Shown here: in pieces, positions 7,782-44,876 of the stretch
Layout of the letters: each line of letters opens with the position of its first letter
Numbering within the stretch: position 1 is the first letter of the stretch
Sequence record: OZ035750.1
Reading direction: 5' to 3' (one strand)
Length of the DNA: 64,000 nucleotides
DNA from: Gamaleyavirus NAN33P5
Translations under genes and position numbers: made by a program
Notes under the pieces: model-generated
Told to the model about the DNA's origin: nothing
What the model saw: only the letters and a program-made list of their open reading frames with translations
The model's database searches: none

Positions 7782-7784
7782 GCT

Positions 7785-8027: not shown

Positions 8028-8031
8028 ACAA

Positions 8032-8058
8032 AGCCCCCATAAAGGGGGCTTTTTCTTT
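8032..8058 (+). terminator. rho-independent terminator
   Basis: stem gccccc / gggggc, loop ataaa, followed by tttttcttt. Confidence 0.75.
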
Positions 8059-8123
8059 CTTCCTTACTCATACTTAAATCAGTATTATCATTCAGTCAGA
8101 CTCTTCTGATACGTCCCGAATGG

Positions 8124-9837: not shown

Positions 9838-9845
9838 GATTAACT

Positions 9846-12116
9846 ATGGAACACCAAGACACTTTTAAGCCTTTACCAGACCCGGCTCAATCAGAGAAAC
9901 TAACGGACTGGAAGAAGGAACCAAGTATCCAATTACTGAAGGGTGATTTGGAATCAGCTAAACCTGCTCACGAAGCAATCATGGCACAGATTCGTGAGTG
10001 GAATGACCTGATGGAAGTCAAGGGTAAAGCTAAACCTCCAAAGGTTAAAGGACGTTCTCAAGTCCAACCTAGACTGGTTCGCCGTCAGGCAGAGTGGCGA
10101 TATGCTCCATTGTCTGAGCCGTTCCTCTCATCTAATAAACTCTTTAAAGTAACCCCGGTTACTTTTGAAGATGAGTTAGCTGCAAGACAGAATGAGTTAG
10201 TTCTTAACTACCAATTTCGTACCCAGCTTAATAAAGTGAAGCTGGTAGATGATTACGTACACAGTGTCGTAGATGACGGTACTGGTATTGCTCGTATTGG
10301 CTGGGAACGTAAGACCGTTAAAATTAAAACAGAAACACCGGTCTTCCAGTTGTATCCAATTGAGAACCAGGAACAGGCAGATGTTCTTCAACAGGCTTTA
10401 CAGCTTCAGGCAGAGAATCCTCGTGAGTATGATGAAACAATGCCGGAAGATATTAAGGAAGCTGTTAACTACTTCAATGAAACTGGAGAAGCTACTTATG
10501 CAATCCAGACTGGGATTACTGAAGTAGAAGTAGAGAAGGCACTGGTTAACAGACCTACCGTTGAAATGCTTAACCCCAATAACGTGGTTATTGACCCTAG
10601 TTGTAATGGTGATTTGGATAAGGCTCTGTATGCAGTTATCTCATTTGAGACATGCAAAGCAGACCTCATGAAGAACAAGGACCGTTATCACAATTTAGAT
10701 AAGATTGACTGGGAAAGTTCTAGCCCTATGACTGACCCAGACCATGAAAGTAAAACTCCAAGCGACTTCCAGTTTAAGGATGCACTTCGTAAGAAAGTTG
10801 TTGCCTATGAGTACTGGGGATTCTACGACATCAATGATGATGGCTCTCTGGAACCAATTGTTGCTACCTGGATTGGTTCTACCCTTATTCGTATGGAGAA
10901 GAACCCATTCCCGGATGGTAAGTTACCTTTAGTAGTTGTTCCTTACATGCCCCGTAAACGCGAACTCTTTGGTGAAGCTGATGCTGAACTATTAGGTGAT
11001 AACCAAGCAATCCTTGGTGCAACTATGCGTGGGATGATTGACCTGTTAGGTCGAAGTGCAAATGGTCAACGTGGTTACCCTAAAGGGATGCTGGATACAC
11101 TGAACCGTCGTCGATATGACGATGGACAAGATTATGAATACAACCCAATGCAGGGTAATCCTAGTCAGGCCATTATGGAACATAAGTTCCCTGAGTTACC
11201 TCAGTCGGCAATAGTAATGACCCAGATGCAAAACCAGGAAGCAGAATCCCTAACTGGTGTTAAAGCATTCTCTGGTGGTGTAACTGGTTCAGCTTACGGA
11301 GATGTGGCTGCTGGTATTCGTGGTGCACTTGACGCAGCATCTAAACGTGAGATGGCAATCCTTCGTCGATTAGCTAAGGGTATGGCAGATATTGGTACTA
11401 AGATTTGTGCAATGAATGCCGTGTTCTTATCGGAGAAAGAAGTAGTACGTATTACTAACGAGCAGTATGTAGAGATTAACCGTGAAGACCTTAAAGGTAA
11501 CTTCGATATTGAGGTTGATATTAATACTGCTGAAATTGATAACCAGAAGTCTCAGGACTTGAGCTTCATGGTTCAAACACTGGGTAATACGGTTGACCAG
11601 ACTATTACGTTATCTCTTGTAGCTAAGATTGCAGAACTTAAACGTATGCCTGACCTGGCTCATGAGTTACGTACTTGGCAACCACAGCCAGACCCTATGG
11701 AAGAACAGCTTAAGCAATTGGCAATTCAGAAAGCACAGCTTGAGAATGAAGAGCTGCAAAGTAAGATTGCACTCAATATGGCTAAGGCTAAAGAGGCAGC
11801 TTCTGCTGGTGACCTTAAAGACCTGGATTATCTGGAACAGGAATCTGGTACTAAACATGCTCGTGATATGGAAAAACAAAAAGCACAATCTCAAGGAAAC
11901 CAGAACCTTCAAATAACTAAGGCATTGACAACACCTATTAAAGAAGGTGAAACTACCCCCAACATATCTGCTGCTGTTGGATATAATACATTGACTGACG
12001 GGAACTCTATACCAGAACGTGATTTAGCTGCTCAGCAAGACCCGGCTTATTCACTCAGTTCCCAATACTATGACCCTAGCCAAGACCCAGCATCGGCTCT
12101 TGGCATGAACCTGTAA
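9846..12116 (+). CDS. portal protein
   Basis: 756 aa; size and position (between lysis genes and scaffold/capsid) match N4 gp59-like portal; acidic C-terminus. Confidence 0.65.
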
Positions 12117-12129
12117 GGCAGACCTTCAC

Positions 12130-12474
12130 ATGAGTAAAGAATCAACAATCGCTGGACTGGAACATCGACTGGAAGCTGCTAAAGGTGCAGTTGCACATGC
12201 AGAAGATGTACGTAAACTTCTGGAGAATCCACTGTTCCGTAAAGTAATTCTTCGCCAGTTCTGTGTGGAAGATTGCGCACGTTACGTGCAAGAGTCTGGT
12301 GACCCACTGCTTGAAGCTAATAACCGTGCAGATGCATTGAACATGGCTCAAGCTGCTGGTCACTTACGTCGTTGGCTCGACCTCGCTATTCGTATGGGTG
12401 AAAACGAAGCTGACGTTATTCTACAGGTAGAAGAAGAACTCGACGCAGTTCGTGCTGAACCTGAAGACGAATAA
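12130..12474 (+). CDS. hypothetical head-module protein
   Basis: 114-aa ORF between portal and scaffold-like gene. Confidence 0.35.
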   Translation: MSKESTIAGLEHRLEAAKGAVAHAEDVRKLLENPLFRKVILRQFCVEDCARYVQESGDPLLEANNRADALNMAQAAGHLRRWLDLAIRMGENEADVILQVEEELDAVRAEPEDE

Positions 12475-16556: not shown

Positions 16557-19211
16557 ATGGGCTTATTCAGTGGGAAGACCAAAGTATACGTAGCATCCTC
16601 TGTCTATAACATGGCAGGGGATATACATAAGCGTCCAAACTATATGAAGACTGTGGTTATTGGTAATATTGTTTTTAATACAGGATTCACTATGGCAGAC
16701 ACTATCTCCGATAGTTATCTGAACGGACCTGGTATTCGTATGCGACTGTTCTCCAGCTGGAGTAAGAACCACTATGATTCAGAAGTTGGTATGGCAGGTT
16801 CTTCATTGGGTGTACTGGCTAAGATTGACCCTACTGTTATAGAGGGTCAAATTACCCCACCTGCTGGAGAATCAGTCTATGTTCAGGCAGCAGAGATTGG
16901 CTTTGCTGACTTTGAGCAATGGTGTGACCAGTATCTTTATGAGAATGCCCCAAGTCGTATCATGGAACGATTCGACGTAGACATTGATGAAGATACTAAT
17001 GAAATTACTATGACTTCCCTGGATGGAGGTTCTACCATTACATTCACACCTACTAATTTTGAACCAGGTGCTTTGTATCTCTATGCTGATTACACATTCT
17101 ATAAGTCCCCGACTACTAATCCACCTGTAGTAGGACCGACTACTGTCTATGATGGTGAGGATGACTTACCATCTACTTTGTTGTGGACTACCATCTCAAG
17201 CGATACGACAGCTAATACAGCCAATCTTACCAAGACTATACAGACTCATTCTGTTTACTCTGATGGTAGGCCAGATGAAGACAGTACTGTTACTGAACCA
17301 AGTGTAGATAACTGGAACTCTTACGTTAAGGTTTACCGTAGAGGATTTACTGAGAAGCCTGATGATGTAACTGTAGTTGTATCTGACAGGGTAATGACTC
17401 ATACAAAGTTTGGTGAGATTCAATCCAATACTACTGTAACTACCAATGTAGTTGATTTAGGCGGTGGTGTTACTCGCACTGACACAATCACCACAATTAC
17501 AGAGACACTGGTTCGTAAATACTCATCTCAGATTACTCGTACTGATACTGAGATGGCTGCTGTTAGTACACCTAAGCTGCTTATCTATAAGCATAATTCT
17601 GGCAACGCTGTACTTGACTCCCTATTTGAGACTGAAGCTACTGATAACCGATTCTATCCATTCATTCCAATCAGGAATGATAAACAATGGGTAGAGTATG
17701 ACCCAATTTACCCCCACTGTAAGAAGGCACTCTATAAAGCTACTGGTGGTAAGCTTAATAAAGTAATGACGGAGCTTAAGAAGAATAAGGACATAGGTGA
17801 TATTCAGTACATTTATGGCACATTCGGTGTATCCCTTAATACTCCAGAGGATACTGCTAAGGAATATATCTACCGTTTCTTTCAGATGGCTACTGAAGCA
17901 TTCCCACCAGACCCAACTTACCCTACGCTGGAATCGGTAATTGCAGGTTATCAGGCAGCAAATGATGCAGTCGATGCATACGTAAAATGGTGGAACAGGC
18001 AGGAAGGTCTTATTGTTGGAACACCACCCCCCTTGCCGGAATATCCTGTCATACCTAAGCGAGAGTTTAGGGTGCATAGTAGTAAGCATTATAAGTATGA
18101 CATGACCATCCGTTGGAATTATGTATCTGAAACTACACATTCTGGTAAAGCATGGGCAGGTGCTAAACAAGGACAACTTCGAGCCAGGTATGCAGGGGAT
18201 ATAACTCTTACACGCAAGAACATACGTACAGCTAGTAACTCTGGTTCAACCAAAAGATTGGAAGTTATCCCTACGTTTTACTCTATGCAGGAATATGAGT
18301 TGCTTTGGCAAGATGGTAGTAACACCTATCGTAAACTTAGGGTACTTGGTCTACATCACAGCAACAGGGTGTATAAAAACAAGTCAGTAAACATTGATGT
18401 TGCTGAAGCAATGGGTGATGCAGAAGAGAGTGGATTCATTATCCCACTGCACACTAACATCTACCGTTCAATGTCACTGACTCGTAGTACTCAGCTGTCT
18501 ACTGCTTGTTCCTACTTAGTAATGAACTCATATAAGAAGGTTAAGAAGAAGTGGTATCAAACTTCTGCCTTTAAGATTGTGGTTGTTGTAGTTGCTGTCG
18601 TTGTATCTGTATTCACTATGGGTGCTGGTGGTGTAGGTATACTTGGGGCTTATGGTGCAGTTGGTGCATCACTCGGTTTTGTTGGATTAGCTGCTGCAAT
18701 AGTAGGTGCTGTAGCAAACGCCATTGCTGCAATGATTATGATATCTATTGTCACTAAAGTATCTACTTCACTGTTTGGTGATAAGCTAGGTTTTATCATC
18801 GCTGCTGTTGCTTCAATGGTAGCTATGAATGTTGGTACTGCTCTATCTACTGGTACATCCTTATCTACCTTAGCCAGCGAAATGATGAATGCCCAAAACA
18901 TCATGCAGCTCACCAGTTCAGTAGGTAACGGTATTAGCCAGTATATTAATGCATCTACGGCTGCTACTATTCAGAAAGCAGAGAGTGTAATGCAGAAGTA
19001 CAATACCGATATGATGGCAATCAATAAGCAGTATGAAGAAATGTTTGGTACTGCTGGACAGGGTGTAATTGACCCTATGCAATTCGTGTCAATGGAGTCG
19101 ATGGATTCTTTCCTCTCACGTACTCTTATGACTGGTTCAGATATAGCTGATATGTCTCTAAACATGATTGGCAGCTACACTGATATGACTCTTAATACTG
19201 ACCTTGTTTAA
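16557..19211 (+). CDS. large virion/ejection protein with C-terminal Gly/Ala-rich membrane-like region
   Basis: 884 aa; about 120-aa hydrophobic G/A/V-rich stretch ('VVVVVAVVVSVFTMGAGGVGILGAYGAVGASLGFVGLAAAIVGAV...') near C-terminus. Confidence 0.45.
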   Translation: MGLFSGKTKVYVASSVYNMAGDIHKRPNYMKTVVIGNIVFNTGFTMADTISDSYLNGPGIRMRLFSSWSKNHYDSEVGMAGSSLGVLAKIDPTVIEGQITPPAGESVYVQAAEIGFADFEQWCDQYLYENAPSRIMERFDVDIDEDTNEITMTSLDGGSTITFTPTNFEPGALYLYADYTFYKSPTTNPPVVGPTTVYDGEDDLPSTLLWTTISSDTTANTANLTKTIQTHSVYSDGRPDEDSTVTEPSVDNWNSYVKVYRRGFTEKPDDVTVVVSDRVMTHTKFGEIQSNTTVTTNVVDLGGGVTRTDTITTITETLVRKYSSQITRTDTEMAAVSTPKLLIYKHNSGNAVLDSLFETEATDNRFYPFIPIRNDKQWVEYDPIYPHCKKALYKATGGKLNKVMTELKKNKDIGDIQYIYGTFGVSLNTPEDTAKEYIYRFFQMATEAFPPDPTYPTLESVIAGYQAANDAVDAYVKWWNRQEGLIVGTPPPLPEYPVIPKREFRVHSSKHYKYDMTIRWNYVSETTHSGKAWAGAKQGQLRARYAGDITLTRKNIRTASNSGSTKRLEVIPTFYSMQEYELLWQDGSNTYRKLRVLGLHHSNRVYKNKSVNIDVAEAMGDAEESGFIIPLHTNIYRSMSLTRSTQLSTACSYLVMNSYKKVKKKWYQTSAFKIVVVVVAVVVSVFTMGAGGVGILGAYGAVGASLGFVGLAAAIVGAVANAIAAMIMISIVTKVSTSLFGDKLGFIIAAVASMVAMNVGTALSTGTSLSTLASEMMNAQNIMQLTSSVGNGISQYINASTAATIQKAESVMQKYNTDMMAINKQYEEMFGTAGQGVIDPMQFVSMESMDSFLSRTLMTGSDIADMSLNMIGSYTDMTLNTDLV

Positions 19212-19668
19212 CAGGAGAATCCTTATGGATTTGTCATTCTTAACAGGCAACCAAGCCCCTCAGCCAGGAGCTATGTCTTGGATGCCTAATAACAATCAGA
19301 ACTTTAATACCCCAGCTATGAACTATATCCCCGGTGCAACTATTGGTATGAATGCAGGTATAGGAGTAGCCTCCCCTACTTCTTTCTTGTCTGGTTCAGC
19401 TAATCAGTTGGGTATGAACGTACCTACCTTCCAGCTAGGGCTTGGTGCACTTGGTTCCTTAGCTGGTATCTATAGTGGTTTTCAGGCCAACAAGTTAGCC
19501 AAAGACCAGTTGAACTTCACTAAGAGTGTTACTAACACTAACCTGAATAACCAGATTAAGTCTTATAACACTGCACTGGAAGACCGTGCTCGCAGTCGTG
19601 CTACAGCAGAGAATCGTGACCAGTCTTCGGCTGATGCTTACATTGCAGCTAATAAACTAACTCGTTAA
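19204..19668 (+). CDS. virion protein (unknown function)
   Basis: 154-aa ORF overlapping the previous stop. Confidence 0.4.
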   Translation: MFNRRILMDLSFLTGNQAPQPGAMSWMPNNNQNFNTPAMNYIPGATIGMNAGIGVASPTSFLSGSANQLGMNVPTFQLGLGALGSLAGIYSGFQANKLAKDQLNFTKSVTNTNLNNQIKSYNTALEDRARSRATAENRDQSSADAYIAANKLTR

Positions 19669-19680
19669 TAGGAAACCATC

Positions 19681-21645
19681 ATGGCTCAGATAACGTGGAG
19701 AAATGTTGATGCACCTAACTTCTCTGGAGTTGGTGACAGCATTCGCACATTTGGCAGCATGATTGGTAACGCCACCTCCGGCTTAAGTGATGCACTGGGT
19801 AATTTCCAGAACGCTGCCAAGCAGGAGGCTGGCAATGCCGTCATGATGAATGCTATGCAGTATCAGGACCCGAATGAATACCGTAATGCTTTGGCATCCG
19901 GTGCTCTGTTTCAGGGGGTTGACCCTTCACTGGTAAACCAGCGTACTCTTCAGAATCTGGATGAGCGAGCAGGTACATTACTGACTCAACAAGGACAGCA
20001 GGGAACCAATGACTACATTGCATATCGCTTTGGACGTTTACAGGATACTAACACTGCATTAGATAATGCTTCCCCTGCTATTCGTTTACTGTCTGAGGCT
20101 TATCAGTCGGGTGACCAGAATCGTATTAATGCTGCATTAAGTCAGACCCGTGATGCATTGTCTGCACTCCCTGCTGACCAACAACTGGAGATGATGGGTA
20201 GTCTTCAAGGTCAGGGCAGTCAGGCTATTAATCAGGCACAGAACCGTTTTGATTTGGGTGTGGCTCAACGTAATGATGCTGATAGTCAGGCAGCTATGGG
20301 TGTAATGTCACAGATTACCCGTGGTGCTGAGAACCCAAATGATGCCCGTCTGTTGGCAGAAGCATATAGTAAGAACCTGTCCCCAGTTGCACAGGCACGT
20401 TTGCAGGGATTACTGGCTAATGCTTACCCAGGTGTTTACGGTAATGGTGTAGGTGCTGCATCTGCTCCGGGTACTGCTGGTACACGGCAGGGTTCGCCTT
20501 ATGATGTTACTTACCAGTTTGCTGGTACATCTACTCCTATTACTCAAATGAGTATTGGTGATGTAATTAAACACCAGGATGGTATGAAATCGAACCAGGG
20601 TGCTTCACCTGTTGGTGCATTCCAGATTAACCAAGCTACTCTGAAAGACTTCGCTCCCAAAGTTCTTGGTTCAGATTGGCAAAGCCAGCCTCTTTCTCCT
20701 GAGAACCAGGATAAGATTGGTAAGGCTATCTTTGAGTCTCGTAAGAATGGTAACCTTAAAGATACCTGGGCTGCTCTGCCTAACTCTACCCCAGGTGCTT
20801 ATAAGGATATGACATGGGAAGAGGTTAAACCTGTTATTGCCCAAGCTGAAGTAGGGGCTGACCCACTTGCTATGGTTCAGAATAATCAGGGCAATCAGGC
20901 AGTATCTACTCTGGCTCAGGGTATGATTGGTACACGTTCTATGCAGGATAACACCGGTAGTCTTAATACTGACTTCCTCGGTACTGTCACTGATAATACC
21001 CCAGTGGGTGATATTGCTAACCGTCTGTTGGAGGGTGATTTTAAAGGTGCTGACCGTAACTGGGTACTGAACCGGCTGAACGATATTTCTCAGCGTGGAA
21101 ATATGTCACCAGCTATGGCTGCTGCTGTTATGCAACGTGCACAGACTGGAGTACCTGAGGGTTATATTGGTCGTGCTATTGATGCAGTTAACCCATTCAT
21201 TACCAATGAAGCCGGTAATGGTATGCGTCTTAATGACCGTCAGGTAGAACAGTTAATTGAAGGTGTAAAACGGGGGGAGCCACTGGAAGGTAGTGTTCGT
21301 AACCTAGGTCGTGCTCAGGCTATGCAGAACATTCAGGCAGCACAGACTGCATATGATGCTGCCGTAGCTGCACTGGCAAATACCCAGAATAAGATTAACA
21401 CCGGACAAAGTGGTCTTACTGCACTGTTACCTGCACGTCAGGAGGCTGTTACTAAAGCTGCTGCAATGCTCCAAGCTGCACAGGCACAAGTACAGGCTGA
21501 CCCAGCTAACCTGGCTCCAAGGGGTTTCCAGTCACAGGCTAGTGTAGATAGAGCACGAGCTAAGGAAGATGAAGAACGTGCTGCACGGTACTTACGTCAG
21601 GCACAAGGACTGCCTGAGTATATGCAACCAAGGCAAAATCGGTAA
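19681..21645 (+). CDS. virion protein, possible muralytic (transglycosylase-like) ejection protein
   Basis: 654 aa; segment 'GASPVGAFQINQATL' weakly resembles SLT 'GLMQ' region; followed by strong terminator. Confidence 0.4.
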   Translation: MAQITWRNVDAPNFSGVGDSIRTFGSMIGNATSGLSDALGNFQNAAKQEAGNAVMMNAMQYQDPNEYRNALASGALFQGVDPSLVNQRTLQNLDERAGTLLTQQGQQGTNDYIAYRFGRLQDTNTALDNASPAIRLLSEAYQSGDQNRINAALSQTRDALSALPADQQLEMMGSLQGQGSQAINQAQNRFDLGVAQRNDADSQAAMGVMSQITRGAENPNDARLLAEAYSKNLSPVAQARLQGLLANAYPGVYGNGVGAASAPGTAGTRQGSPYDVTYQFAGTSTPITQMSIGDVIKHQDGMKSNQGASPVGAFQINQATLKDFAPKVLGSDWQSQPLSPENQDKIGKAIFESRKNGNLKDTWAALPNSTPGAYKDMTWEEVKPVIAQAEVGADPLAMVQNNQGNQAVSTLAQGMIGTRSMQDNTGSLNTDFLGTVTDNTPVGDIANRLLEGDFKGADRNWVLNRLNDISQRGNMSPAMAAAVMQRAQTGVPEGYIGRAIDAVNPFITNEAGNGMRLNDRQVEQLIEGVKRGEPLEGSVRNLGRAQAMQNIQAAQTAYDAAVAALANTQNKINTGQSGLTALLPARQEAVTKAAAMLQAAQAQVQADPANLAPRGFQSQASVDRARAKEDEERAARYLRQAQGLPEYMQPRQNR

Positions 21646-21653
21646 TACTAATA

Positions 21654-21678
21654 AAAGCCCTACGGGGCTTTTTTCTTT
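21654..21678 (+). terminator. rho-independent terminator
   Basis: aagccc-tacg-gggctt stem-loop followed by ttttcttt. Confidence 0.8.
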
Positions 21679-21721: not shown

Positions 21722-24700
21722 TTGAACAGGAAACATGCTATGTCAACATTTGACCGTCTGGCAGGTTTCGCAGACAGCATCACTAATGCTAAGCAAGTCG
21801 ATGTCTCTACTGCAACCTCTCAGAAGCAAGCTGCACAAGGGCAAAGCCCTTTCCAATTAACCCCAGAGAATGCTTACAATCTCCAGACTGGACGAGTAGG
21901 TAATCTTGGAATCGGTGCATTCGAACCAGGTTCACTTCAGGCAGATTTCACTCAAGCCTCTCCATTAGAAATTATTAATAAATACGGTAATGAGCAAGGT
22001 CTACAAATTCTTAATAGCCGAGCTAATGCTGCGGATGTTGTACGTCAGGACTTATCTAAACAACGTACTAACGCAGAAGCATTTGGCGATACTCTTTCTG
22101 GTGTTGGTCTTGGTGTTGCTAATACCCTTGGGGGCATTGCTGCTCTTGGCACAGGTCTGGTCAATGATAATGCCGGGGCATCCATTTCTTCCGGGATGGA
22201 TTGGCTGAATGAAGGTGTACACAATTTACAATCTGATGCACTGAATGCTACCCGTAAAGTTGTTCAGAATCAGAACCAGATTTCTGCTCAAAAGAACCAG
22301 AAACTCTATGAGCAAGACATCAAAAATGGGGAGAGCGATTTGGTTGCCTCCCTGTCTCGTATTGGACGTGATGCTTTCGATTCTGTTGCTAATACACTTG
22401 ATAATGGCATGGCTGCTTCAGATGGACTGAGTGAAGGTGTTGGTTCCCTCTTTACTGGTGGTCCACTTATCCGTGGTGTATCTGCACTCGGTAAAGTAAT
22501 GGTAGGTGGTGATAAAGCTGTTAAGGGTATTACCTTAGCTGCTGGGTTAGGTTCACGTCCTGCACAGGTTGCATTGTCTGCTGGTCGTGTTGCTGCACCT
22601 GCTATTGCAATTGGTGGCATGGAAGCTGGTGGTGCATACCAACAGACTGCTTCTGAAATCATGAAGATGTCCCAGCAAGAATTGGCAAGTAAGTCTCCTG
22701 TTTACCAACAACATATTGCTGATGGCTTATCTCCTGATGAAGCACGTCGTCAGACTGCATCTGAAACAGGTATCATTGCTGCTGGCTTAACTGCTCCAGT
22801 TGCTGCTGCTACCGGTCCACTGGTATCCAAGTTTGAACTTAATCCACTTAAGGTAGGCTCACTTGCAGGTGCTGGTTCTAATATGCTGCGTGAAACAGTT
22901 GAAGAAGGTATTCAGTCAGGCTTTGGTCAGTATGCCCAGAACCGTGCAATCAAGGAAAATGTTGATGCATTCCGTGACACTCTCAAAGGGGTCGGTGAGC
23001 AAGCAGGTCTTGGTGCACTTTATGGCTTCGGTAGTGCTGGGGTTGCTCAAGCTCCTGGTGCAACTGTTAAAGCAGTTGGTGCTTCTGCTGGTCCTGCTCT
23101 TCGTACTACTCTGGCTGGTGCTTCTCTGGTTGGTAAAACATTAGCAAAAGCTGCGTCCCCTCTTACTAACATCCTGGTTCAACGTGGTGAAGAAGTTGCT
23201 AAGCGTAATGAACAAGCATCTCCTGTAGCTGATGCTACGGTTAACGCTGCTGCACAGGAAGCTGCTGCTCAAGCAGAGCAGGCACAAGCAACTGTACAGG
23301 AAGCAGTAGATGCAATGGATATCACTCCAGAGGAGAAAGCTGCTGCTACCCAGTATGCTGCTGATTTAACTCAGGCAATGAAGTTTGACCCAGTAGAATT
23401 GGAGCAAGCTAACCCTGCAATCCGTGAAGCTGTTTCTGGTTCCACTAACCGTGTAGAAGCTATTCAGAAGATGGCTGACCTGGTTAATACTGCCGAAGAC
23501 CCTAACGTTCAAATGGAAGCTGCAATCCAGATGTATGACAATATCATGTCTATGGATAGCTTCATTAACCGTGACCCAGGTGCTCTGGCTAATCTGGAAC
23601 AGGGTTCCCCTGCTGCTGCAATCGTAGACCAGTTCTCTGGCCTGATGGCTAACGTGCAGAATACCCCTAAAGTACTCCGTGCATTCCGTGCTATCCATTC
23701 TATGATTCAGGAACAGGCTGAAGCAGGTAAACTGAAAGCCACTGAAGAAGCTAGCCAAGCCCAAGCAAACAACATTGCTATGGCTGCTGATGTATCTCCA
23801 GAAGTACTGGATGCAGATTCAGTAAACATGGTTCTGAAACATGCAAGTGAAGGTAAGATTACACTTGGGAATCGTCAACGTGCTGCCCTGCAATCTGCTG
23901 CTGCCTTGTTACAGGGTGCACGTGAGTTCGACGCTAAAGCAGAAGAACTGGGCTTACGTCCTCAAGACATTGTTAGTAAACAGATTAAAACCGATGAGTC
24001 TCGTTCTAACGAAGGACAGTACTCTGCGTTGCAACATGCGAAACGCATTCGTTCTGCGTATAACTCTGGTAACTTCGATTTGGCCTCCGCTTATCTGAGC
24101 GACTTTATGAAGTTCGCCCAGCACATGCAGAATAAGGTCGGAGCATTGAATGAGCATCTGATTTCTGGGAATGCGGATAAGAATAAGTCTGTTCATTATC
24201 AGGCTCTCTCGCCTTCCCGTGAATGGGTACGTAGTCGTACTGGCCTTGGTGTTAACCCTTACGATACCAAGTCTGTTAAGTTTGCCCAGCAAGTAGCACT
24301 GGAAGCTAAGACCGTAGCTGATATTGCTAATGCACTTGCTACGGCTTACCCGGAGCTTAGTGTTTCTCATGTGAAAGTTACCTCGTTAGATTCACGTCTG
24401 AACAAACCTGCTGCCCAGGTAGTTAAAGAGTTCCGTCAAGGTGGTCTTGATGCCACTCAGTCTCAACAGACTAATGAACCAGTGAATCAGGTTGATGAAT
24501 CTCCTGCACCAGTGCAAGAGGTCACTACTACTGTACAGCCTAAAGCTAAACCAGTGGTAGAAAATAAGACTGCTCCTATTAAGGAGACTAGTCCAAAAGC
24601 AGAAGAAGTCTCTACTACTAAGACTGAAACAGTAGATGTTACCCTCACTAATGAGGGTAACATCCAGGAAGTAGCTGTAACCAAAACAGAAATGGAAACA

Positions 24701-27700
24701 GTGTTCCCTGTCTATAACAATGAAAAGACACCGAACCAGTTCCTGAAATCGTTTTCCCTGCCGGAAGAACCTAAGTCCCGTACCATTGGTTCTGAATCTC
24801 CTTTGGCTGATATTAAGCAAGCACTGTCTTCTGCTGCTCGCTTTGAAGCATTCACTCAAAAAGAAAATAACGCTCTCACTAGTGATGTGATGAAACGTTA
24901 TCAGGACTTGATGGACTTTGGGGAAACTCTGAAGACTACTCTGTCTGAACGTCTGGCTAAGTTCCTTGCTAACAAAAATGTTGGTAAACGTTTTGCAGAA
25001 GGTACTGAGGCTAATCGTTGGGTAGGTGGCAAACTGCTGAATATCGTTGAACGAGATGGTGATACCTTTAAGTTCAACGACCAGTTGTTAGAGACTGCTG
25101 TACTTGCTGGTCTGCAATGGCGACTGACTGCTACACAGAATGCTGCCATTAAAGATATGAAAGATGTAGCTGCTATTACTGGCGTAGAAGCATCTCTGTT
25201 ACCAGAAGGTATTCTGGCTGAGTTTGAGAATGCCCAGACTCTGGTAGAAGCTACTAACTCACTGGCTCAGAAGATTGAATCCTACTGGGGTTTGAATCGC
25301 AATCCTAATGCACCACTGGGTTATACGAAAGGTATCCCAATGGCAATGGCTACAGAGATTCTGTCTTCCCTCATTGAGATGGGTGAAGTTAAAGAGTCTA
25401 TGCTGGATGTGTCTGAGATTGACCCGAACTCCAATAAGACTGTTGGTCTGTATACTATTGAGAAGCTGGATGACAATGATGCCATTAATAAATTCCCTAC
25501 TGCTATTGAGGAAGCTGTCCTATTAGAACCAGAAGAGAAAATGTACTTTGGTGATGACATTCCTTCCGTGGCCCAGACTCAGTTACGTAATCCTGCTGTT
25601 AAAAATACCCCTGAGCAGAAAGCTGCTCTGAAAGCTGAACAGGCTACTGAGTTCCGTGTACATATGCCGATGGTTAACTTCTATGAAGCATTAGGCCGTG
25701 ACAACATTCTGGAACTGATGGGTGCTGGTACTCTTAATCCTGACTTACTGAATGAGAACACTGCTAAATCTCTGGAAGGTAAAAACCTGTCCGTGTCTAT
25801 GGCATATGATTCTCTGTTCGGTGTAATTAATCAGATACGGGAACAAGAGAATGGATTGGATACGCCTATCCATTACGGTTACAACATGACCCGTGTAGGT
25901 CGTATGCAGATGCTTGGTAAGAACAACCCACAATCCAGTAAGCTGGTTCGTGAAGCAATTCTGCCGACCTTCTCTACTATCGACTTAAGTAATGAAAACA
26001 GCCAAGCGTACTCTGACTTCCAGCTAGGACTGGCTCAGGCATTGGGCATCAAGGTACATAACATGTCCCGTGAGGCTATGTCTGAAAAGCTGACCAAGGC
26101 TCTGGAAGGCAATCTGAAGCCAGCTGTTGATATGATGGTTGAGTTCGATAAGTCTGGTCACTTACCTGCCGATGCAGTAGATATTCTGAAGACCTCTCTG
26201 GGTGGTGACAAATCCTTTGTAGCTCTCATGGCTCTGATGGAATATGCCCGTTACCTGAACAGTGATGACCGTGCCAACTTTAATACCCCACTGTACGTTG
26301 AAGCTGATGGTGTAACCAACGGCCCAATCAATGCAATGGTATTAATGACTGGTGGTAAATTCACTCCAGACTGGATTAAGAATACTGCCAAAGGTGGTTT
26401 GTTCTTCGGCAAAGCTGGTAAGACTATGAACGAACATCGTTCACAGGATGATAGTGTTGACCTGTATGAAGCATCTACTAATGGTTTGCAACAAGCACTA
26501 AATGAGTTACGTACTACTTACCGTAACAACGTTCCTGTTATGAGCCAGATGAATCATCTCCAGAAGTTAATGGACCTGTTCATTAAAGACTTTAACCTGA
26601 ATGAAGACGGTACTCTGGACCTGAAACGTGGTATCGCTAAAAACCCACTGACCATTACCATCTATGGTTCTGGTGCTCGTGGTATTGCTGGCAAGATGGT
26701 TAGTGCAATTACTGACACCATCTACGAACGCCTCAGTGACGTTTTGCAAGCACGTGCTGCTGACCCTAGCATTTCCCCAGCTATGGCAATGTTTGGTAAG
26801 GAGGCTGCGTCTGAGGCTGATGCTCAGGCTATGCTGGATACTTTCCTTACTTCTATGGAAGCACTGACTGGTAATGTTCCAGTTATGCGTAAGGGTGAGT
26901 TATCTATTCAACAAGTAGAGGGTGCACTGACTGGTAAGTTAAACCCTCAGAAATTTACAGTATCCGGTAATGCCCTGAAGAATTTACAGGAGAACATGCT
27001 CCACCTGTTCGTTGAACCAATGCGTACTGGTATCCGTAATACTGTTGGTGAAGGTCTGATGCACTCTACTGAGAACTTGCAGAAGGCTACCCAGATTCAG
27101 TCTCTGGTATTGCAGGATATGTTCCAGCAAGCAGTACAGGCTAAACTAGCAGAAAAAGAAAAAGACTCAACCTGGAAGAAGGGTGATTTCTTAACGCAGA
27201 AAGAACTGAATGAAATCCAGGAATCATTATCCCCGCTGGCTCCAATGATTGAGACTGGCTCACAGACTTTCTACATTGCTGGTAGTGAGAATACTGATGT
27301 TGCTAACCAAGTACTGGCTACCAACTTAGATGACCGTATGCGTGTGCCAATGAGTATCTATGCTCCTTCGCAGGCAGGTGTTGCAGGTATTCCGTTTATG
27401 ACCATTGGTACTGGTGATGGCATGATGATGCAGACCCTTTCTACTATGAAAGGTGCTCCGAAGAATACCCTGAAAATCTTTGATGGTATGAACATTGGTA
27501 TCAATGACATCACTGATGCGAGTCGTAAAGCGAATGAGGCTGTATACACATCCTGGCAGGGGAACCCTATCAAGAATGTTTATGACTCCTACGCTAAGTT
27601 CATGAAGAATGTAGATTTCAGCAAACTGTCTGATGAAACCAAACAGGCTATCGCTAAATCTGCTCTGGAATATGACCAGCGTGAAGGTGCTACCGATGAC

Positions 27701-30700
27701 CTGTTACGTGCGGGTGCTGAACAGATTGAACGTAACCTGCGTAACATTGCCCTGGGTGTAGATATTCGCCACAAAGTAATGGACCAGGTGCAGACCACTG
27801 TTGATCAGATGGCTGCTGTGGGTGCTCCTTATGTGAACAACGGTAAAATCTCTCTTGAAGGTCTTACTGTAGACCAGCAAGTAGCCAAACTGAACGAACT
27901 GTTTGATGCTGAATTAAACAAGCGTCGTGATGCAGTACGTGCTGCTAAAGCAGAACCAGTGAAAGAAGTACCGGCAATGGAACAGGTTGGTCGTGTTCTT
28001 AAGTCTGGTGTACGTCTGCTGTCCAATACTGCTATTGCTAAGCTGGCTAAAGAGATGTCTCCTGAACAGCAAGCAGTATTGAAAGAAGTACAGAAATCCC
28101 TTGCTGCCAAAGACTATAAGGTTGTTTACGGTACTCCTGCTCAACTGGATGCTTACGCTATTGAGAAGAACATTACTCGCCCAGCACCAGAAGATATTGA
28201 AGCTGCCGAAGCTGGTAATGCATACGGCTGGACTAACTTTGATGATAAGACCATCTACTTGGTTACCCCTTCCTTAGAGACTCTGGTTCATGAATTAGTA
28301 CATGCTTCTACTTTTGAATCTGTACTGGCTCATTATGAGGGTACTCCTAACGAAGCAGTCCAGAATATTGAAGACCTGATGAATCAGTTCCGTACTTTGG
28401 ATGTTAAGAACGAATCCACGGTAGTACGTGAAGCATATGCTGATGCTCTCAATACCATTAATGGTCACTTGTCTAATGGCTTTATTGAACCAGCAATGGC
28501 TAAAGCTGCTGCACTGAATGAGTACATGGCATGGGGCTTAACTAACCGTGAGCTGATTAGTAAGCAGAAGAAGACCACTGCACTGAAAGCTATGGTTCAG
28601 TCTGTATATGAAGCAATCAAACGTCTGGTATTCGGTCGTAAGAAAGCTCCTGCTAATGCAGATGATATGTTCTCAGGCTTATTGTTTAACTCATCTGTAG
28701 TTATGCGTGGACAGGCTCCTACGGCTGTTGTATCCAAGGACACTACCTTGTTCCATAACAAAGCGTATGGTGACAATACCCGTCTGGAAGAGTTAGGACA
28801 GACCTTTGATAAGCTGATTACTAACTACATTGGTTCAGAACCAGTACAGCAAGTAATTCGTAAAGGTAAGTTTTCTGATGCAGTAGTGAATGCAACTAAA
28901 GTAACCCGCGATGTTCAGGCTCATGGCTTCACTATGAATATGCAGGAACAGCGTCTGTTCACTAATATCGTTGCTGCTTTGGCTACTGAAGCTGCTATTA
29001 GTCCTGCTGCTCTTTCTCGTGCACAGGAATATTATGCACACGTTACCAAGAACCTGACTGTTGAAGCATTCATGGCTGACCCAGATAGTACTGACCCTGC
29101 TGACCGTTACTATGCTCAGCAGAAGTTTGATACCATCATGGGTGCTAACAATATTGAGTTTGATGCACAGGGACGTTCTTCCTTACTGCCTACCTTTGTT
29201 GGTCTGGCAATGGTAAGCGAAGAAGTACGTAATGTACTGGCTAACATTCCTGTTATGAAAGCAGATAAGAAATCTGGTAATACCGTTGATGCAATGCTGA
29301 CTAACATTGGTACTGCTGCAATGTCCAGCCTGAATGCTCGTGTAGCAGGTGATACCAAAGCTACCAACGTGCAGGACGGTATGGATGCACTGGCTCAGAC
29401 AATCATGCAGACTAGCCTTAATGCACAGTCATTCTATGATTCCGTTGCTACTCCTAGTGGTAATGCTATTGACCGTGCTAACCAGTATCTGGTGGATTCT
29501 ATCGATGCACTGTCTACTCGTGCTTTAGAAAGTGCTCGTGAAGTTGCAGCCAATACCAAGAACCCGTTGGTCAAAGGTGCTGCTCATGCTGCACAACTGG
29601 TAGCTGCCATTGCTACAGAGAAGAACGGTGCAATCGTGGCAGAAGGTGTTATGGCTGCAATGAACCAGGGTAAAGTATGGCCACCCTTCCATGACTTAGT
29701 TAATGACTTAACCGGTCGTACTAAGAGCAATGCTTCTGTATACGATTTGATTAAAGCAGTTCGTGCACAGGTACAAGCAGACCGACAGCAATTCCGTGAA
29801 CGCCTGCCTACCACTATTGCATCTAAGTTCAGCCGTAAGCTGACTAATGATGAGTGGAAAGCAATGCACACTGGTATGGGTAAAACTGATTTAGCTGTCC
29901 TGCGTGACACCATGTCTCTGGCTGAAATCCGTGACCTGCTGTCTGACCAGAAGATTGTTGACCGTGAAGTGAATAAGCTGGAAGCAGATTTGCAGAAGCA
30001 AGCTGGTCGTAACTGGCCTCTTATTAGTCGTAAATCTAAGCAACTGGCTCAGTACATGATTAACGGTACAGTCGGTAATAACCTGCTGCGTAATGCTACT
30101 GCAATCTCCCGTATGCTGGGTGAACGACAGGCTGCTCGTTCTACTGTAGATGTAGCTCAGCTGGATAAACTGATTACCCTGTATGCACTGGAAGCAATGA
30201 ATAAGACTGATCGTGAGATGTTATCTTCACTGGCTCAGACAGAAGTTGATGGAATGGACTTTGCTACTTCTTATCTGGTTGGTCAGCGTAAAGATGAAAT
30301 GGCTAAAGCCAAGTCTGACCCACGTGCAACTCTGAACCAGTACAAAGGGCATATCCCTAGTGAGACTAAACAGGGTGTTAATCTGATTGTTGCTGAAGAT
30401 AGCCAGTTTGCTGATTTAATTGAGAAGTCTTATGTACGTCTTGGTACTTATCAAGGTAGCTCTGCCAACCGTGGTCCAGCACGTAGCTATTACTTTGCTC
30501 CAGTACAGGCACAGGCTCCCTTCTCACAGGGTATCCTACAGAACGTTCGTGATACTGCTGGTGGTGTAGACCTCGGCACAGGATTTACGATGGGTTCAAT
30601 GGTAGCTGGTCGTATTACTGACAAGCCTTCCGTAGACCGTATTACTAAAGCACTGGCTCGTGGTGAACGTGGCAATGAACCATTGCTGCCTGTATATGAC

Positions 30701-32092
30701 GATAAAGGTAATGTAGTTGCTTATGAGCAATCCATTGACCCTAACATGCTGAAGCATATTGAAGGTGAGAACCACCTTGCCCGTGCAATTGGTGTATGGC
30801 GTGGTCGCCAAGTGGAAGAGGCTAAGGCTCAGCGTTTTAACGATATGCTGATTGAGAACCTGCACAGCATGTATGAGAACGACATTAAGATGTCTGCCTC
30901 TAATAAGTCCCAGTACGTTAACCTTCTTGGTTCTAAACTGGACCCAGTAACTGCTGATGCTCTCAAGCTGATGAACAGTGAAACTCGACGGAAAGCAGAA
31001 AGCCTGTTTGGTGATGGCGAACTGTGGGTGCGTCGTGACATGCTGAATGATGCACTTGGTTATCGTGCAGCTTCTGTTGGTGATGCCTGGTCTGGTAATT
31101 CTCGTTGGTCCCCGGAAACCCTGGATACCTTCAAGAAAGCTATGCTGGGTGTATTTGGCAACCGTGCTTATAAGTACACAATAGGTGGTGAGAACCTGGT
31201 TCAGAACTTAGTTAAAGAAGCCAAGACTCTGATTGTAGTTAAGTCAGTAGTCGTACCTGCTGTTAACTTCTTGGCTAACCTTTACCAGATGGTTGCTCGT
31301 GGTGTACCGGTTAAGAACATTGCTAAAAGCATTCCACAGAAAACTGCTGAGATTAACCAGTACCTGAAATCTCGTTTGCGTCAGGTAGATGCAGAAGCAG
31401 AATTACGTGCAGCTACTAACCCGAACCAGATTCGTAAACTTAAGGCTGAGATTCAGTCTATCACTGATAGCCATAAGCGTATGAGTATCTGGCCTCTGTT
31501 AGAAGCTGGTGAGTTCTCTTCAATTGCAGATGCTGGTATCGGTCGTGATGACATTCTGATCACTGAAGGCAAACTTCACGAATACATGGAAAAGCTGGCT
31601 GATAAGTTACCTAAGTCAGTACGTACTGCTGGTCGTTATGCACTTATCACTAAGGATACTGCTTTGTTCCAGGGTATTCAGAAGACGGTTGAGTACTCTG
31701 ACTTTATTGCTAAAGCAATCATCTATGATGAATTGACCCAGCGTAAAGGTAAGACTCGTGAAGAAGCACTAGGACGTGTGACGGAAGAGTTCGTGAACTA
31801 TGACCGTTTACCGGGTCGCTTCCGTGGGTATATGGAAAGTGTTGGTTTAATATGGTTCTACAACTTTAAGATTCGTTCTGCAAAAGTTGCAGTGTCCATG
31901 ATTCGTAACAACCCAGTACATGCAGCAATGGCGATGTTGGCTCCAACTCCTACCATGTTTGGTAATGTTGGCTTACCTATTCAGGACAACATCTTTAGCA
32001 TTGCTGCTAAGGGTGGACTGGATTACTCATGGGGCTTCGGTCAAGGGCTTCGTGCTCACAACCTGAACCCTTGGATGAACTTAGTAAACTAA
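21722..32092 (+). CDS. virion-encapsidated RNA polymerase (giant vRNAP, N4 gp50-like)
   Basis: Single 3456-aa ORF, hallmark size and position for N4-like phages; central region has single-subunit RNAP-like acidic motifs ('YVEADGVTNGP', 'KIFDGMNIG'). Confidence 0.85.
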   Translation: MNRKHAMSTFDRLAGFADSITNAKQVDVSTATSQKQAAQGQSPFQLTPENAYNLQTGRVGNLGIGAFEPGSLQADFTQASPLEIINKYGNEQGLQILNSRANAADVVRQDLSKQRTNAEAFGDTLSGVGLGVANTLGGIAALGTGLVNDNAGASISSGMDWLNEGVHNLQSDALNATRKVVQNQNQISAQKNQKLYEQDIKNGESDLVASLSRIGRDAFDSVANTLDNGMAASDGLSEGVGSLFTGGPLIRGVSALGKVMVGGDKAVKGITLAAGLGSRPAQVALSAGRVAAPAIAIGGMEAGGAYQQTASEIMKMSQQELASKSPVYQQHIADGLSPDEARRQTASETGIIAAGLTAPVAAATGPLVSKFELNPLKVGSLAGAGSNMLRETVEEGIQSGFGQYAQNRAIKENVDAFRDTLKGVGEQAGLGALYGFGSAGVAQAPGATVKAVGASAGPALRTTLAGASLVGKTLAKAASPLTNILVQRGEEVAKRNEQASPVADATVNAAAQEAAAQAEQAQATVQEAVDAMDITPEEKAAATQYAADLTQAMKFDPVELEQANPAIREAVSGSTNRVEAIQKMADLVNTAEDPNVQMEAAIQMYDNIMSMDSFINRDPGALANLEQGSPAAAIVDQFSGLMANVQNTPKVLRAFRAIHSMIQEQAEAGKLKATEEASQAQANNIAMAADVSPEVLDADSVNMVLKHASEGKITLGNRQRAALQSAAALLQGAREFDAKAEELGLRPQDIVSKQIKTDESRSNEGQYSALQHAKRIRSAYNSGNFDLASAYLSDFMKFAQHMQNKVGALNEHLISGNADKNKSVHYQALSPSREWVRSRTGLGVNPYDTKSVKFAQQVALEAKTVADIANALATAYPELSVSHVKVTSLDSRLNKPAAQVVKEFRQGGLDATQSQQTNEPVNQVDESPAPVQEVTTTVQPKAKPVVENKTAPIKETSPKAEEVSTTKTETVDVTLTNEGNIQEVAVTKTEMETVFPVYNNEKTPNQFLKSFSLPEEPKSRTIGSESPLADIKQALSSAARFEAFTQKENNALTSDVMKRYQDLMDFGETLKTTLSERLAKFLANKNVGKRFAEGTEANRWVGGKLLNIVERDGDTFKFNDQLLETAVLAGLQWRLTATQNAAIKDMKDVAAITGVEASLLPEGILAEFENAQTLVEATNSLAQKIESYWGLNRNPNAPLGYTKGIPMAMATEILSSLIEMGEVKESMLDVSEIDPNSNKTVGLYTIEKLDDNDAINKFPTAIEEAVLLEPEEKMYFGDDIPSVAQTQLRNPAVKNTPEQKAALKAEQATEFRVHMPMVNFYEALGRDNILELMGAGTLNPDLLNENTAKSLEGKNLSVSMAYDSLFGVINQIREQENGLDTPIHYGYNMTRVGRMQMLGKNNPQSSKLVREAILPTFSTIDLSNENSQAYSDFQLGLAQALGIKVHNMSREAMSEKLTKALEGNLKPAVDMMVEFDKSGHLPADAVDILKTSLGGDKSFVALMALMEYARYLNSDDRANFNTPLYVEADGVTNGPINAMVLMTGGKFTPDWIKNTAKGGLFFGKAGKTMNEHRSQDDSVDLYEASTNGLQQALNELRTTYRNNVPVMSQMNHLQKLMDLFIKDFNLNEDGTLDLKRGIAKNPLTITIYGSGARGIAGKMVSAITDTIYERLSDVLQARAADPSISPAMAMFGKEAASEADAQAMLDTFLTSMEALTGNVPVMRKGELSIQQVEGALTGKLNPQKFTVSGNALKNLQENMLHLFVEPMRTGIRNTVGEGLMHSTENLQKATQIQSLVLQDMFQQAVQAKLAEKEKDSTWKKGDFLTQKELNEIQESLSPLAPMIETGSQTFYIAGSENTDVANQVLATNLDDRMRVPMSIYAPSQAGVAGIPFMTIGTGDGMMMQTLSTMKGAPKNTLKIFDGMNIGINDITDASRKANEAVYTSWQGNPIKNVYDSYAKFMKNVDFSKLSDETKQAIAKSALEYDQREGATDDLLRAGAEQIERNLRNIALGVDIRHKVMDQVQTTVDQMAAVGAPYVNNGKISLEGLTVDQQVAKLNELFDAELNKRRDAVRAAKAEPVKEVPAMEQVGRVLKSGVRLLSNTAIAKLAKEMSPEQQAVLKEVQKSLAAKDYKVVYGTPAQLDAYAIEKNITRPAPEDIEAAEAGNAYGWTNFDDKTIYLVTPSLETLVHELVHASTFESVLAHYEGTPNEAVQNIEDLMNQFRTLDVKNESTVVREAYADALNTINGHLSNGFIEPAMAKAAALNEYMAWGLTNRELISKQKKTTALKAMVQSVYEAIKRLVFGRKKAPANADDMFSGLLFNSSVVMRGQAPTAVVSKDTTLFHNKAYGDNTRLEELGQTFDKLITNYIGSEPVQQVIRKGKFSDAVVNATKVTRDVQAHGFTMNMQEQRLFTNIVAALATEAAISPAALSRAQEYYAHVTKNLTVEAFMADPDSTDPADRYYAQQKFDTIMGANNIEFDAQGRSSLLPTFVGLAMVSEEVRNVLANIPVMKADKKSGNTVDAMLTNIGTAAMSSLNARVAGDTKATNVQDGMDALAQTIMQTSLNAQSFYDSVATPSGNAIDRANQYLVDSIDALSTRALESAREVAANTKNPLVKGAAHAAQLVAAIATEKNGAIVAEGVMAAMNQGKVWPPFHDLVNDLTGRTKSNASVYDLIKAVRAQVQADRQQFRERLPTTIASKFSRKLTNDEWKAMHTGMGKTDLAVLRDTMSLAEIRDLLSDQKIVDREVNKLEADLQKQAGRNWPLISRKSKQLAQYMINGTVGNNLLRNATAISRMLGERQAARSTVDVAQLDKLITLYALEAMNKTDREMLSSLAQTEVDGMDFATSYLVGQRKDEMAKAKSDPRATLNQYKGHIPSETKQGVNLIVAEDSQFADLIEKSYVRLGTYQGSSANRGPARSYYFAPVQAQAPFSQGILQNVRDTAGGVDLGTGFTMGSMVAGRITDKPSVDRITKALARGERGNEPLLPVYDDKGNVVAYEQSIDPNMLKHIEGENHLARAIGVWRGRQVEEAKAQRFNDMLIENLHSMYENDIKMSASNKSQYVNLLGSKLDPVTADALKLMNSETRRKAESLFGDGELWVRRDMLNDALGYRAASVGDAWSGNSRWSPETLDTFKKAMLGVFGNRAYKYTIGGENLVQNLVKEAKTLIVVKSVVVPAVNFLANLYQMVARGVPVKNIAKSIPQKTAEINQYLKSRLRQVDAEAELRAATNPNQIRKLKAEIQSITDSHKRMSIWPLLEAGEFSSIADAGIGRDDILITEGKLHEYMEKLADKLPKSVRTAGRYALITKDTALFQGIQKTVEYSDFIAKAIIYDELTQRKGKTREEALGRVTEEFVNYDRLPGRFRGYMESVGLIWFYNFKIRSAKVAVSMIRNNPVHAAMAMLAPTPTMFGNVGLPIQDNIFSIAAKGGLDYSWGFGQGLRAHNLNPWMNLVN

Positions 32093-32128
32093 AATAAAAA
32101 AGCCCCTCATAGAGGGGCTTTGCTTTTA
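32093..32128. terminator. bidirectional terminator between convergent late (+) and minus-strand genes
   Basis: agcccctc-atag-aggggct hairpin flanked by A-rich (upstream) and T-rich (downstream) tracts. Confidence 0.75.
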
Positions 32129-41585: not shown

Positions 41586-41986
41586 GTGTATGTTTTACAA
41601 TGGTTTTTGTACTCATACTCAATCTTCTTCCACTTACGCATGAAGGAAGGTCTTTCATTACTGTAAACCCAATCGGTACAGGATTCTTCCAACTTAACTA
41701 CTTCACCGCTATCCCCATAATCAAGGTAAGCTTTAGCAAGTAGACGATTAGCGTAATGAACTAGCTTCTCACAATCATACACTGTAGTGTTTCCAGGTTT
41801 ACCATTACCCATACGGGCAGCAGCATTTCGCCATAGGGCTTTAAAGGCACAACCTTCATCGAAGGTCATGCCCAGTGCTTGGATAATATCCTCACACTCT
41901 GCTTGATATGGCTCTTGCTCTTTCCGTTGGGGATTCTTAATTGAAACTACATAGTAGTTATTAAGACCACCGGAGAGCTTAGTCAT
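41510..41986 (-). CDS. hypothetical protein (DUF3310-like?)
   Basis: 158 aa; 'FKALWRNAAARMGNGKPGN' region loosely resembles DUF3310. Confidence 0.3.
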   Translation of the reverse strand: MTKLSGGLNNYYVVSIKNPQRKEQEPYQAECEDIIQALGMTFDEGCAFKALWRNAAARMGNGKPGNTTVYDCEKLVHYANRLLAKAYLDYGDSGEVVKLEESCTDWVYSNERPSFMRKWKKIEYEYKNHCKTYTCFPRELHFQSIRWADIYRYRITYL

Positions 41987-42291
41987 TATTCCCCCTTGGG
42001 AATCATATTTGCCTGGAACTCTGGTTCAGACATCAGACCCAGGTTATTGATGGACAGATAAACAATGTCTTTCAGGTCAACCGAGGTATCAAAACGCTGG
42101 TCCAGACTAATCTTCAGAGAGTGATTGACACGGGCCAAATCTTTATAAGTCACATGAGGTTCGTCAGTGAGCAGCATTGTATTCATGGTAAGCAGGGAAC
42201 CATCATCAGCTTTAGGAAGCTGGAAGATTACCTGTGCTGCCACCATCCAATGATATTTTTTGACGACGGTTTCTTTAGTACTTTTAGTCAT
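41986..42291 (-). CDS. hypothetical protein
   Basis: 101-aa ORF, start overlaps DNA polymerase stop. Confidence 0.3.
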   Translation of the reverse strand: MTKSTKETVVKKYHWMVAAQVIFQLPKADDGSLLTMNTMLLTDEPHVTYKDLARVNHSLKISLDQRFDTSVDLKDIVYLSINNLGLMSEPEFQANMIPKGE

Positions 42292-44867: not shown

Positions 44868-44876
44868 AGCTTTACC

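Follow-up and report, generated by a model that had tools for sequence, protein, structure and literature searches.

In this study, we analyzed a 64,000-nt stretch of DNA from Gamaleyavirus NAN33P5 (record OZ035750.1, one strand; the whole stretch is called the window below) and focused on the giant gene that closes its block of virion genes. We identified a single uninterrupted open reading frame (ORF) on the + strand at 21722..32092, which holds 3,456 codons from the first possible start (TTG 21722) and translates free of stops. The other five frames across the same 10.4 kb hold 83-437 stops each, with a longest open run of 231 codons, indicating that the ORF is not a chance feature. This agrees with an earlier reading made from the letters of the DNA (the sequence-only reading), which had described one unbroken ORF of 10.4 kb. 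The + strand genes follow the order found in phage PhAPEC7: portal (gp59-like), gp58, gp57, major capsid (gp56), gp55, gp54, gp53, gp52, gp51 and then the giant gene. Beyond it lie convergent - strand genes, again in PhAPEC7 order, for gp49-like and gp48-like proteins, a tRNA, the single-stranded DNA-binding protein (SSB), a gp44-like protein, primase, exonuclease and DNA polymerase. We conclude, with a probability of about 0.97, that the giant gene is the orthologue of N4 gp50, that is, the virion-encapsidated, single-subunit, T7-like DNA-dependent RNA polymerase (virion RNA polymerase, vRNAP) of a Gamaleyavirus (Schitoviridae, Enquatrovirinae).

The start codon and the predicted protein

The TTG at 21722 is merely the first in-frame TTG after a stop, 18 nt before ATG 21740. 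The real vRNAP start is almost certainly this ATG, since a Shine-Dalgarno-like AGGAAA motif, the alignment with N4 gp50 and the length of the PhAPEC7 coding sequence (CDS) all agree on it. In the phmmer alignment, ATG 21740 pairs with Met1 of N4 gp50 (MSTFDRLAGFADS versus MSVFDRLAGFADS), and the CDS counted from it has 10,353 nt, the same length as the annotated PhAPEC7 CDS. The length of 3456 aa in the sequence-only reading is thus replaced by 3,450 aa, with a predicted mass of 374 kDa and an isoelectric point of 5.6.

The predicted vRNAP contains no cysteine in its 3,450 aa, compared with about 30 predicted from the other long ORFs of the window. Cysteine is also absent from the orthologues of N4, PhAPEC7, PhAPEC5 and K57alpha1.2, and this trait has been noted before for the vRNAPs of N4 and related phages (PMC2784036). 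Antisense ORFs of 118-155 aa within the gene were unsupported, and we set them aside as open frames of the kind commonly seen opposite a long gene with biased codon usage.

Identification as an N4-type virion RNA polymerase

The predicted protein was compared with PDB sequences using phmmer. Full-length N4 'virion DNA-directed RNA polymerase' (3,500 aa; 11gp, 9pnq, 9pnr and others) was matched at 5,013 bits in one collinear alignment, which spans residues 1-3449 of the query and 1-3499 of the target. Residues 996-2069 matched the N4 mini-vRNAP crystal chains 2po4, 3c2p and 3q0a at ~1,699 bits. Similarity of the central domain to the N4 mini-vRNAP, the point on which the sequence-only reading had been made to depend, was therefore found, and it extends along the whole protein. 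All four vRNAP-specific Pfam families matched with E-values of 1e-28 to 6e-101 (Table 1), and PHROG 2206 'virion RNA polymerase' covers residues 25-3449.

In the MAFFT alignment, the protein showed 67% amino acid identity to N4 gp50 (YP_950528; 2PO4, 3C2P, 3Q0A, 9PNQ-9PNW, 11GP), with which it has a three-domain architecture in common and is collinear over its full length. The identity to PhAPEC7 gp81 (YP_009056186), a protein of equal length, was 97.9%. The catalytic residues of N4 are R424, D559, K670, Y678 and D951 in mini-vRNAP numbering (PMC2784036 citing Kazmierczak 2002). We found that the five corresponding residues (R1388, D1523, K1634, Y1642, D1915) are all kept, and that the local motifs are identical to those of N4. 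The acidic motifs that the sequence-only reading had noticed in the centre of the ORF are motif A, YVEAD(1523)GVTNG, and motif C, KIFD(1915)GMNIG. In N4, R119 and W129 of the mini-vRNAP read the -11G of the hairpin promoter (PMC13492108); both readers are conserved in the alignment, as R1084 and W1094.

The NAN33P5 protein thus has the T/DxxGR, A, B and C motifs in identical form, the plug, the motif B region, the -11G readers and the absence of cysteines in common with N4 gp50. Its gene also occupies the position of N4 gp50, as the last late gene, after gp51 and gp52 and convergent with gp49. Taken together, every feature of the N4 gp50 family that can be looked for in a sequence is present in the predicted NAN33P5 vRNAP.

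T7 RNA polymerase (RNAP) and the mitochondrial single-subunit RNAPs have the palm/fingers/thumb fold and motifs A, B and C in common with this family, as described in the literature for N4 (PMC13492108, PMC2784036). In contrast to T7 RNAP, a vRNAP of this type, about four times its size, is carried in the virion and injected, reads a DNA hairpin instead of a duplex promoter, and is autoinhibited by its own C-terminal domain (CTD).

Table 1. Features of the vRNAP gene and its surroundings in the 64,000-nt window (NTD, N-terminal domain; Pol, polymerase domain)
Feature	Position (nt)	Strand	Residues (aa)	Description and basis
vRNAP CDS (orthologue of N4 gp50)	21740..32092	+		3,450 codons plus stop; ORF, start context, N4 alignment, Pfam, PHROG, PhAPEC7 CDS length
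Shine-Dalgarno-like motif	21728..21733	+		AGGAAA, 6 nt before ATG 21740; read from sequence
N-terminal domain	21740..24481	+	1 to ~914 (= N4 1-919)	boundaries via alignment onto N4 domains (PMC13492108)
Linker 1	24482..24688	+	~915-983	low-complexity T/E/K/P/V-rich NTD-Pol tether, indel hot spot
Polymerase (mini-vRNAP) domain	24689..27952	+	~984-2071	T7-like single-subunit RNAP fold, N4-specific plug, motif B loop
Linker 2	27953..27982	+	~2072-2081	shorter than that of N4, which has 8 extra aa
C-terminal domain	27983..32089	+	~2082-3450	alpha-helical; alignment to N4
-11G readers of the promoter hairpin	24989..25021	+	R1084 (= R119), W1094 (= W129)	VGKRFAEGTEANRWVGGKLL; alignment; roles PMC13492108
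PF21867			1292-1407	Pfam match
T/DxxGR motif	25901..25903	+	R1388 (= R424)	MTRVGR; alignment; residue list PMC2784036
PF21624 'plug insertion'			1424-1505	Pfam match
Motif A catalytic aspartate	26306..26308	+	D1523 (= D559)	YVEADGVTNG; alignment; PMC2784036
PF21894 'N4 RNAP helical'			1583-1799	Pfam match
Motif B	26639..26665	+	K1634 (= K670), Y1642 (= Y678)	RGIAKNPLTITIYGSG; alignment; PMC2784036
PF21769			1881-2025	Pfam match
Motif C catalytic aspartate	27482..27484	+	D1915 (= D951)	KIFDGMNIG; alignment; PMC2784036
Linker insert of other phages	~24644-24685 (would-be site)		between 969 and 982	PhAPEC5 protein aa ~970-1103
gp52 homologue	19204..19668	+		55% identity to N4 gp52
gp51 homologue	19681..21645	+	654 aa	49% identity to N4 gp51, 565 bits
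Terminator-like hairpin, then T-run	21653..21672	+		between gp51 homologue and vRNAP gene
G+C-rich hairpin	32099..32121			7 nt past vRNAP stop; scores as terminator on - strand
Adjacent tRNA-like genes	33799-33877 and 33883-33958	-		ARAGORN

Domain layout and the parts that vary

The vRNAP is laid out as NTD, linker, Pol, linker and CTD, three domains arranged as 'beads on a string'. The corresponding linker of N4 (907-1006) has been described (PMC13434306). In the alignment with N4, Pol has 71.8% identity and the CTD 68.8%; the NTD is lower, at 60.5%, and linker 1 lower still, at 47%. The NTD is therefore the domain most diverged from N4, and some of its 100-aa bins are only 43-45% identical. 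N4 gp50 is 50 aa longer than the NAN33P5 vRNAP. Nearly all of this difference falls within linker 1 (aa ~927-992) and linker 2 (aa ~2077-2104), where most of the indels between the two proteins also sit.

We also compared the gene with that of PhAPEC7 by the Nei-Gojobori method. The ratio of nonsynonymous to synonymous substitution rates (dN/dS) was 0.051 over the whole gene. By domain, it was lowest in Pol (0.033), followed by the CTD (0.042) and the NTD (0.077), and all three are thus under strong purifying selection. Across linker 1 (aa 901-992, 92 codons, 24440-24715), dN/dS was ~1.4, a value that comes from few substitutions. Every length difference from PhAPEC5 and K57alpha1.2 sits in this linker, at aa 969-982. 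This pattern, as far as so few substitutions go, is consistent with a spacer whose composition is under constraint but whose sequence is not.

With each of the three domains as query, we then searched 50,697 phage records by tblastn in the same way. Matches were found in 222 records with the NTD, 377 with Pol and 467 with the CTD, a rough measure only, since the queries differ in length (906, 1,072 and 1,361 aa, respectively). Identity to Delftia phage RG-2014 was 34.8% (NTD), 42.6% (Pol) and 44.9% (CTD). For Achromobacter phages, the values were ~49-51%, 54-56% and 60%, and for Roseovarius Plymouth podovirus 1, Pol reached 25.2% and the CTD 29.4%. The order NTD < Pol < CTD was consistent wherever the same phages, or closely related phages of the same host genus, recurred across the lists.

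The sequence-only reading had regarded both terminal thirds as the variable parts. This holds for the NTD (60.5% identity to N4, 222 records) but not for the CTD, which compares with Pol at 68.8% versus 71.8% identity and 467 versus 377 records. From these alignments and searches, the truly variable parts are the NTD and the two inter-domain linkers, and the CTD is as conserved as the Pol core or more so. Across Schitoviridae, no other part of the protein can be detected as widely as the CTD, and it was not until 2026 that structures defined its roles in autoinhibition and packaging.

Variation within the genus

In vRNAPs of the G7C, PhAPEC5, Bp4 and EC1-UPM type, we observed an extra segment of ~121 aa in linker 1, of normal composition amid the low-complexity linker. 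Searches located it in 29 phage records, always in the vRNAP gene and at >91% identity; the NAN33P5 lineage is without it. Pfam and PDB searches with the PhAPEC5-type insert gave no match. Outside the insert, these vRNAPs (3,571 aa in G7C, PhAPEC5 and Bp4) are 97% identical to that of NAN33P5. The genus thus has two vRNAP forms, one with a short linker (NAN33P5, PhAPEC7, SP5M, IME11, K57alpha1.2) and one with a long linker (G7C, PhAPEC5, Bp4; 29 records).

Two readings of this variation were scored jointly, and we consider the pair doubtful. One is a functional dimorphism of the linker, in which the insert would be an added 'bead' affecting, for example, how the protein threads the tail channel or docks at the envelope, and would not be neutral churn. 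The other is that a near-identical vRNAP works in both Escherichia and Klebsiella hosts. If one such vRNAP does serve both, host range would depend entirely on swapped tailspikes.

The left end of the window encodes the large terminase, a virion protein and two tail/tailspike proteins. Only Klebsiella phage K57alpha1.2 covers window 1-21700 to 100%; Gamaleyaviruses of E. coli cover 72-79% of it. The ORFs at 3006-5708 and 5778-7781 matched PHROGs for tail, tailspike and exopolysaccharide (EPS) depolymerase, with conserved N-terminal anchors and divergent remainders. These observations would fit a tailspike swap, probably at these two ORFs, that retargeted a coliphage-like genome to a Klebsiella capsule type.

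Alternative explanations

The packaging of the protein in the virion is supported by relatives. The orthologous protein was found in virions by mass spectrometry in phages Moo19, of the same subfamily, and B2, which is 25% identical to N4 (PMC11654681), and because the virions of both carry it, the packaging proposed for NAN33P5 is phylogenetically bracketed. By another account, the ORF would encode a T7-like RNAP with unrelated large domains fused to it, a cytoplasmic enzyme expressed after infection and neither packaged nor injected. The terminator-like hairpin that sets the gene apart from the upstream virion genes would suit such an enzyme. However, the NTD and CTD are homologous end to end with N4 gp50, whose virion location and ejection are established, and packaging has been seen in relatives both closer and far more distant. 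The protein is also free of cysteine, like other injected vRNAPs, and its gene lies in the late block and adjoins the gp51 and gp52 ejection genes, where a late gene could serve early transcription only if the particle carries the product in. A cytoplasmic enzyme is thus very improbable.

A decaying or catalytically dead vRNAP, kept as a structural or ejection protein while another enzyme carries out early transcription, is close to negligible as an explanation. The NTD and CTD (about 2,400 aa) do have non-catalytic roles, which is a general point only. Against it, there are no stops or frameshifts across the 10,353 nt, none of the five catalytic residues or the two -11G readers has been lost, and Pol has the lowest dN/dS of all parts (0.033).

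Nothing was found that contradicts the assignment to the N4-type vRNAPs, but the support for it has several gaps. Packaging in the virion, ejection and hairpin-promoter specificity are properties that we infer for the NAN33P5 vRNAP by analogy with its homologues. The sequence-only reading had placed the gene at the end of the structural operon; it is the last + strand gene of that block, and the terminator-like hairpin in front of it means that simple co-transcription with the upstream operon is not established. In addition, vRNAP-type promoter hairpins were not found above chance within the 64-kb window. This absence is expected, because the window ends inside the gene for the RNAPII large subunit and does not include the left ~6-7 kb of the genome; the early region with the cognate promoters is thus located beyond it.

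Promoter hairpins

The core of the N4 P2 promoter was searched in the window with up to 3 mismatches allowed; the 13-mer gave 7 matches versus 9.8 expected, and the 17-mer gave 0. We also scanned the window for hairpins with a 5-bp stem and an NGN loop and found 43, from which the chance expectation was estimated. One candidate, a GC-GGA-GC hairpin near 47850 on the - strand, was rejected as a chance occurrence (~2.7 expected) on the wrong strand for the local genes. An inverted-repeat search of window 56000-64000 revealed nothing promoter-like.

Turning from the window to N4 itself, we located P2 at 559-575, upstream of gp2. In PhAPEC7, a 95%-identical relative of NAN33P5, we found a P2-like hairpin, ATAAGACGCGGAGCGTC, at 910-926, upstream of a gp2-like gene. 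The stem GAAGC/GCTTC of N4 is GACGC/GCGTC in PhAPEC7, a pair of compensatory changes, and the GGA loop is the same. This covariation supports the recognition of structure over sequence.

Proposed mechanism

The steps proposed here are taken from N4 and other Schitoviridae; what NAN33P5 itself provides is an intact orthologue under selection beside the gp51 and gp52 genes. About four copies of the N4 vRNAP are packaged, and packaging needs the CTD, which packs on the palm and fingers and autoinhibits the polymerase (PMC13434306, PMC13492108). N4 gp51 and gp52 are co-ejected and form an outer-membrane complex and a periplasmic tunnel, respectively (PMC13434306).

In NAN33P5, a few copies of the vRNAP would likewise be packed into the capsid late in infection, with the CTD required. 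After adsorption, the protein would be threaded domain by domain through a tail channel of ~30-35 A, and the loose tethering of its domains would let a chain of ~380 kDa pass this channel and the conduit that gp51 forms in the outer membrane and gp52 in the periplasm. The CTD may hold the motif B loop in the active site and so keep the polymerase autoinhibited. Supercoiling by host gyrase would extrude promoter hairpins at the left genome end, and host SSB would stabilize them. Hairpins with a stem of 5-7 bp, a 3-nt loop and G at -11 would then be recognized, and their engagement would activate the vRNAP. The enzyme could thus transcribe the early genes without host RNAP and help to draw the genome in. 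This early transcription would start a cascade that leads to RNAPII and then to SSB-directed late transcription.

Relatives and existing annotation

At the DNA level, Klebsiella phage vB_Kpl_K57alpha1.2 shares 98.3% identity with the vRNAP gene, and about 40 records of Escherichia and Shigella phages, among them SP5M, PhAPEC7, IME11, Mimir124 and phi G17, match it end to end at 92-95%. For the vRNAPs of PhAPEC7, SP5M, IME11, Mimir124 and K57alpha1.2, DNA identity is 92-98% across 100% of the gene. The K57alpha1.2 protein is ~99% identical in amino acids in each of NTD, Pol and CTD and differs by a 7-aa indel in linker 1.

Across the window, DNA identity is 97-98.7% to vB_Kpl_K57alpha1.2 and 92-96% to SP5M, PhAPEC7 and Mimir124, and these relatives are classified as Schitoviridae, Enquatrovirinae, Gamaleyavirus. 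The gene content typical of N4-like phages is present, with vRNAP, RNAPII, an N4-type SSB and the gp51-gp59 virion block. On gene content, gene order and nucleotide identity to classified members, the window is securely assigned to a Gamaleyavirus genome. The label of N4-like phage in the sequence-only reading was therefore correct, as indicated by the identity of 92-98% to Gamaleyavirus, the synteny with PhAPEC7 and the homologues of gp51, gp52, SSB and the RNAPII large subunit.

The exact protein sequence of the vRNAP is recorded only once, in a Logan assembly contig (ERR12949720_4, 74,407 nt). The gene is intact, ordinary and already known; many GenBank records carry a near-identical gene under the name 'virion RNA polymerase'. 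The N4 mechanism has been known for decades, so the NAN33P5 gene leaves the understanding of the system unchanged. Its significance lies in annotation: it identifies an N4-like genome, settles the start codon and domain boundaries, and corrects the idea of a variable C-terminal third.

In the record of vB_Kpl_K57alpha1.2 (OY979416.1), which is the nearest relative among deposited sequences, positions 1245-12176 match window 21740-32092, and the feature table is out of register with the sequence. About 30 small CDSs, nearly all pseudo or partial and mostly on the opposite strand, and a 'terminase' CDS are drawn over the intact gene for a vRNAP of 3,443 aa. The label 'virion RNA polymerase' is placed under the region of the replication genes. 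It seems that these features were drawn up for a reversed or rotated version of the sequence.

Genomic neighbourhood

The gp52 homologue likely starts at ATG 19225, which gives 147 aa; the N4 alignment begins at Met8 of the query, and PhAPEC7 gp79 also has 147 aa. The SSB of the window is 60% identical to N4 SSB. At the right edge of the window, a truncated ORF, 76% identical to its PhAPEC7 counterpart, holds the C-terminal part of the RNAPII large subunit.

The hairpin past the vRNAP stop (32099-32121) marks the convergence of the late (+) and middle (-) genes. PhAPEC7 and PhAPEC5 annotate terminators at the same places as the two hairpins flanking the vRNAP gene (Table 1), the downstream one on both strands.

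Among the - strand genes, ARAGORN predicted a tRNA-Ile with the unusual anticodon AAT and a tRNA-like gene with an unassigned two-base anticodon, 5 nt apart. PhAPEC7 has a single 'tRNA-Xle' annotated at the equivalent site. The PhAPEC7 annotation also places intron-encoded endonucleases within the genes for the gp44-like ATPase and DNA polymerase, a region that matches window ~37570-44870. In the window, DNA polymerase is encoded by one ORF of 859 aa (42288-44867), and intron content may differ between this phage and PhAPEC7.

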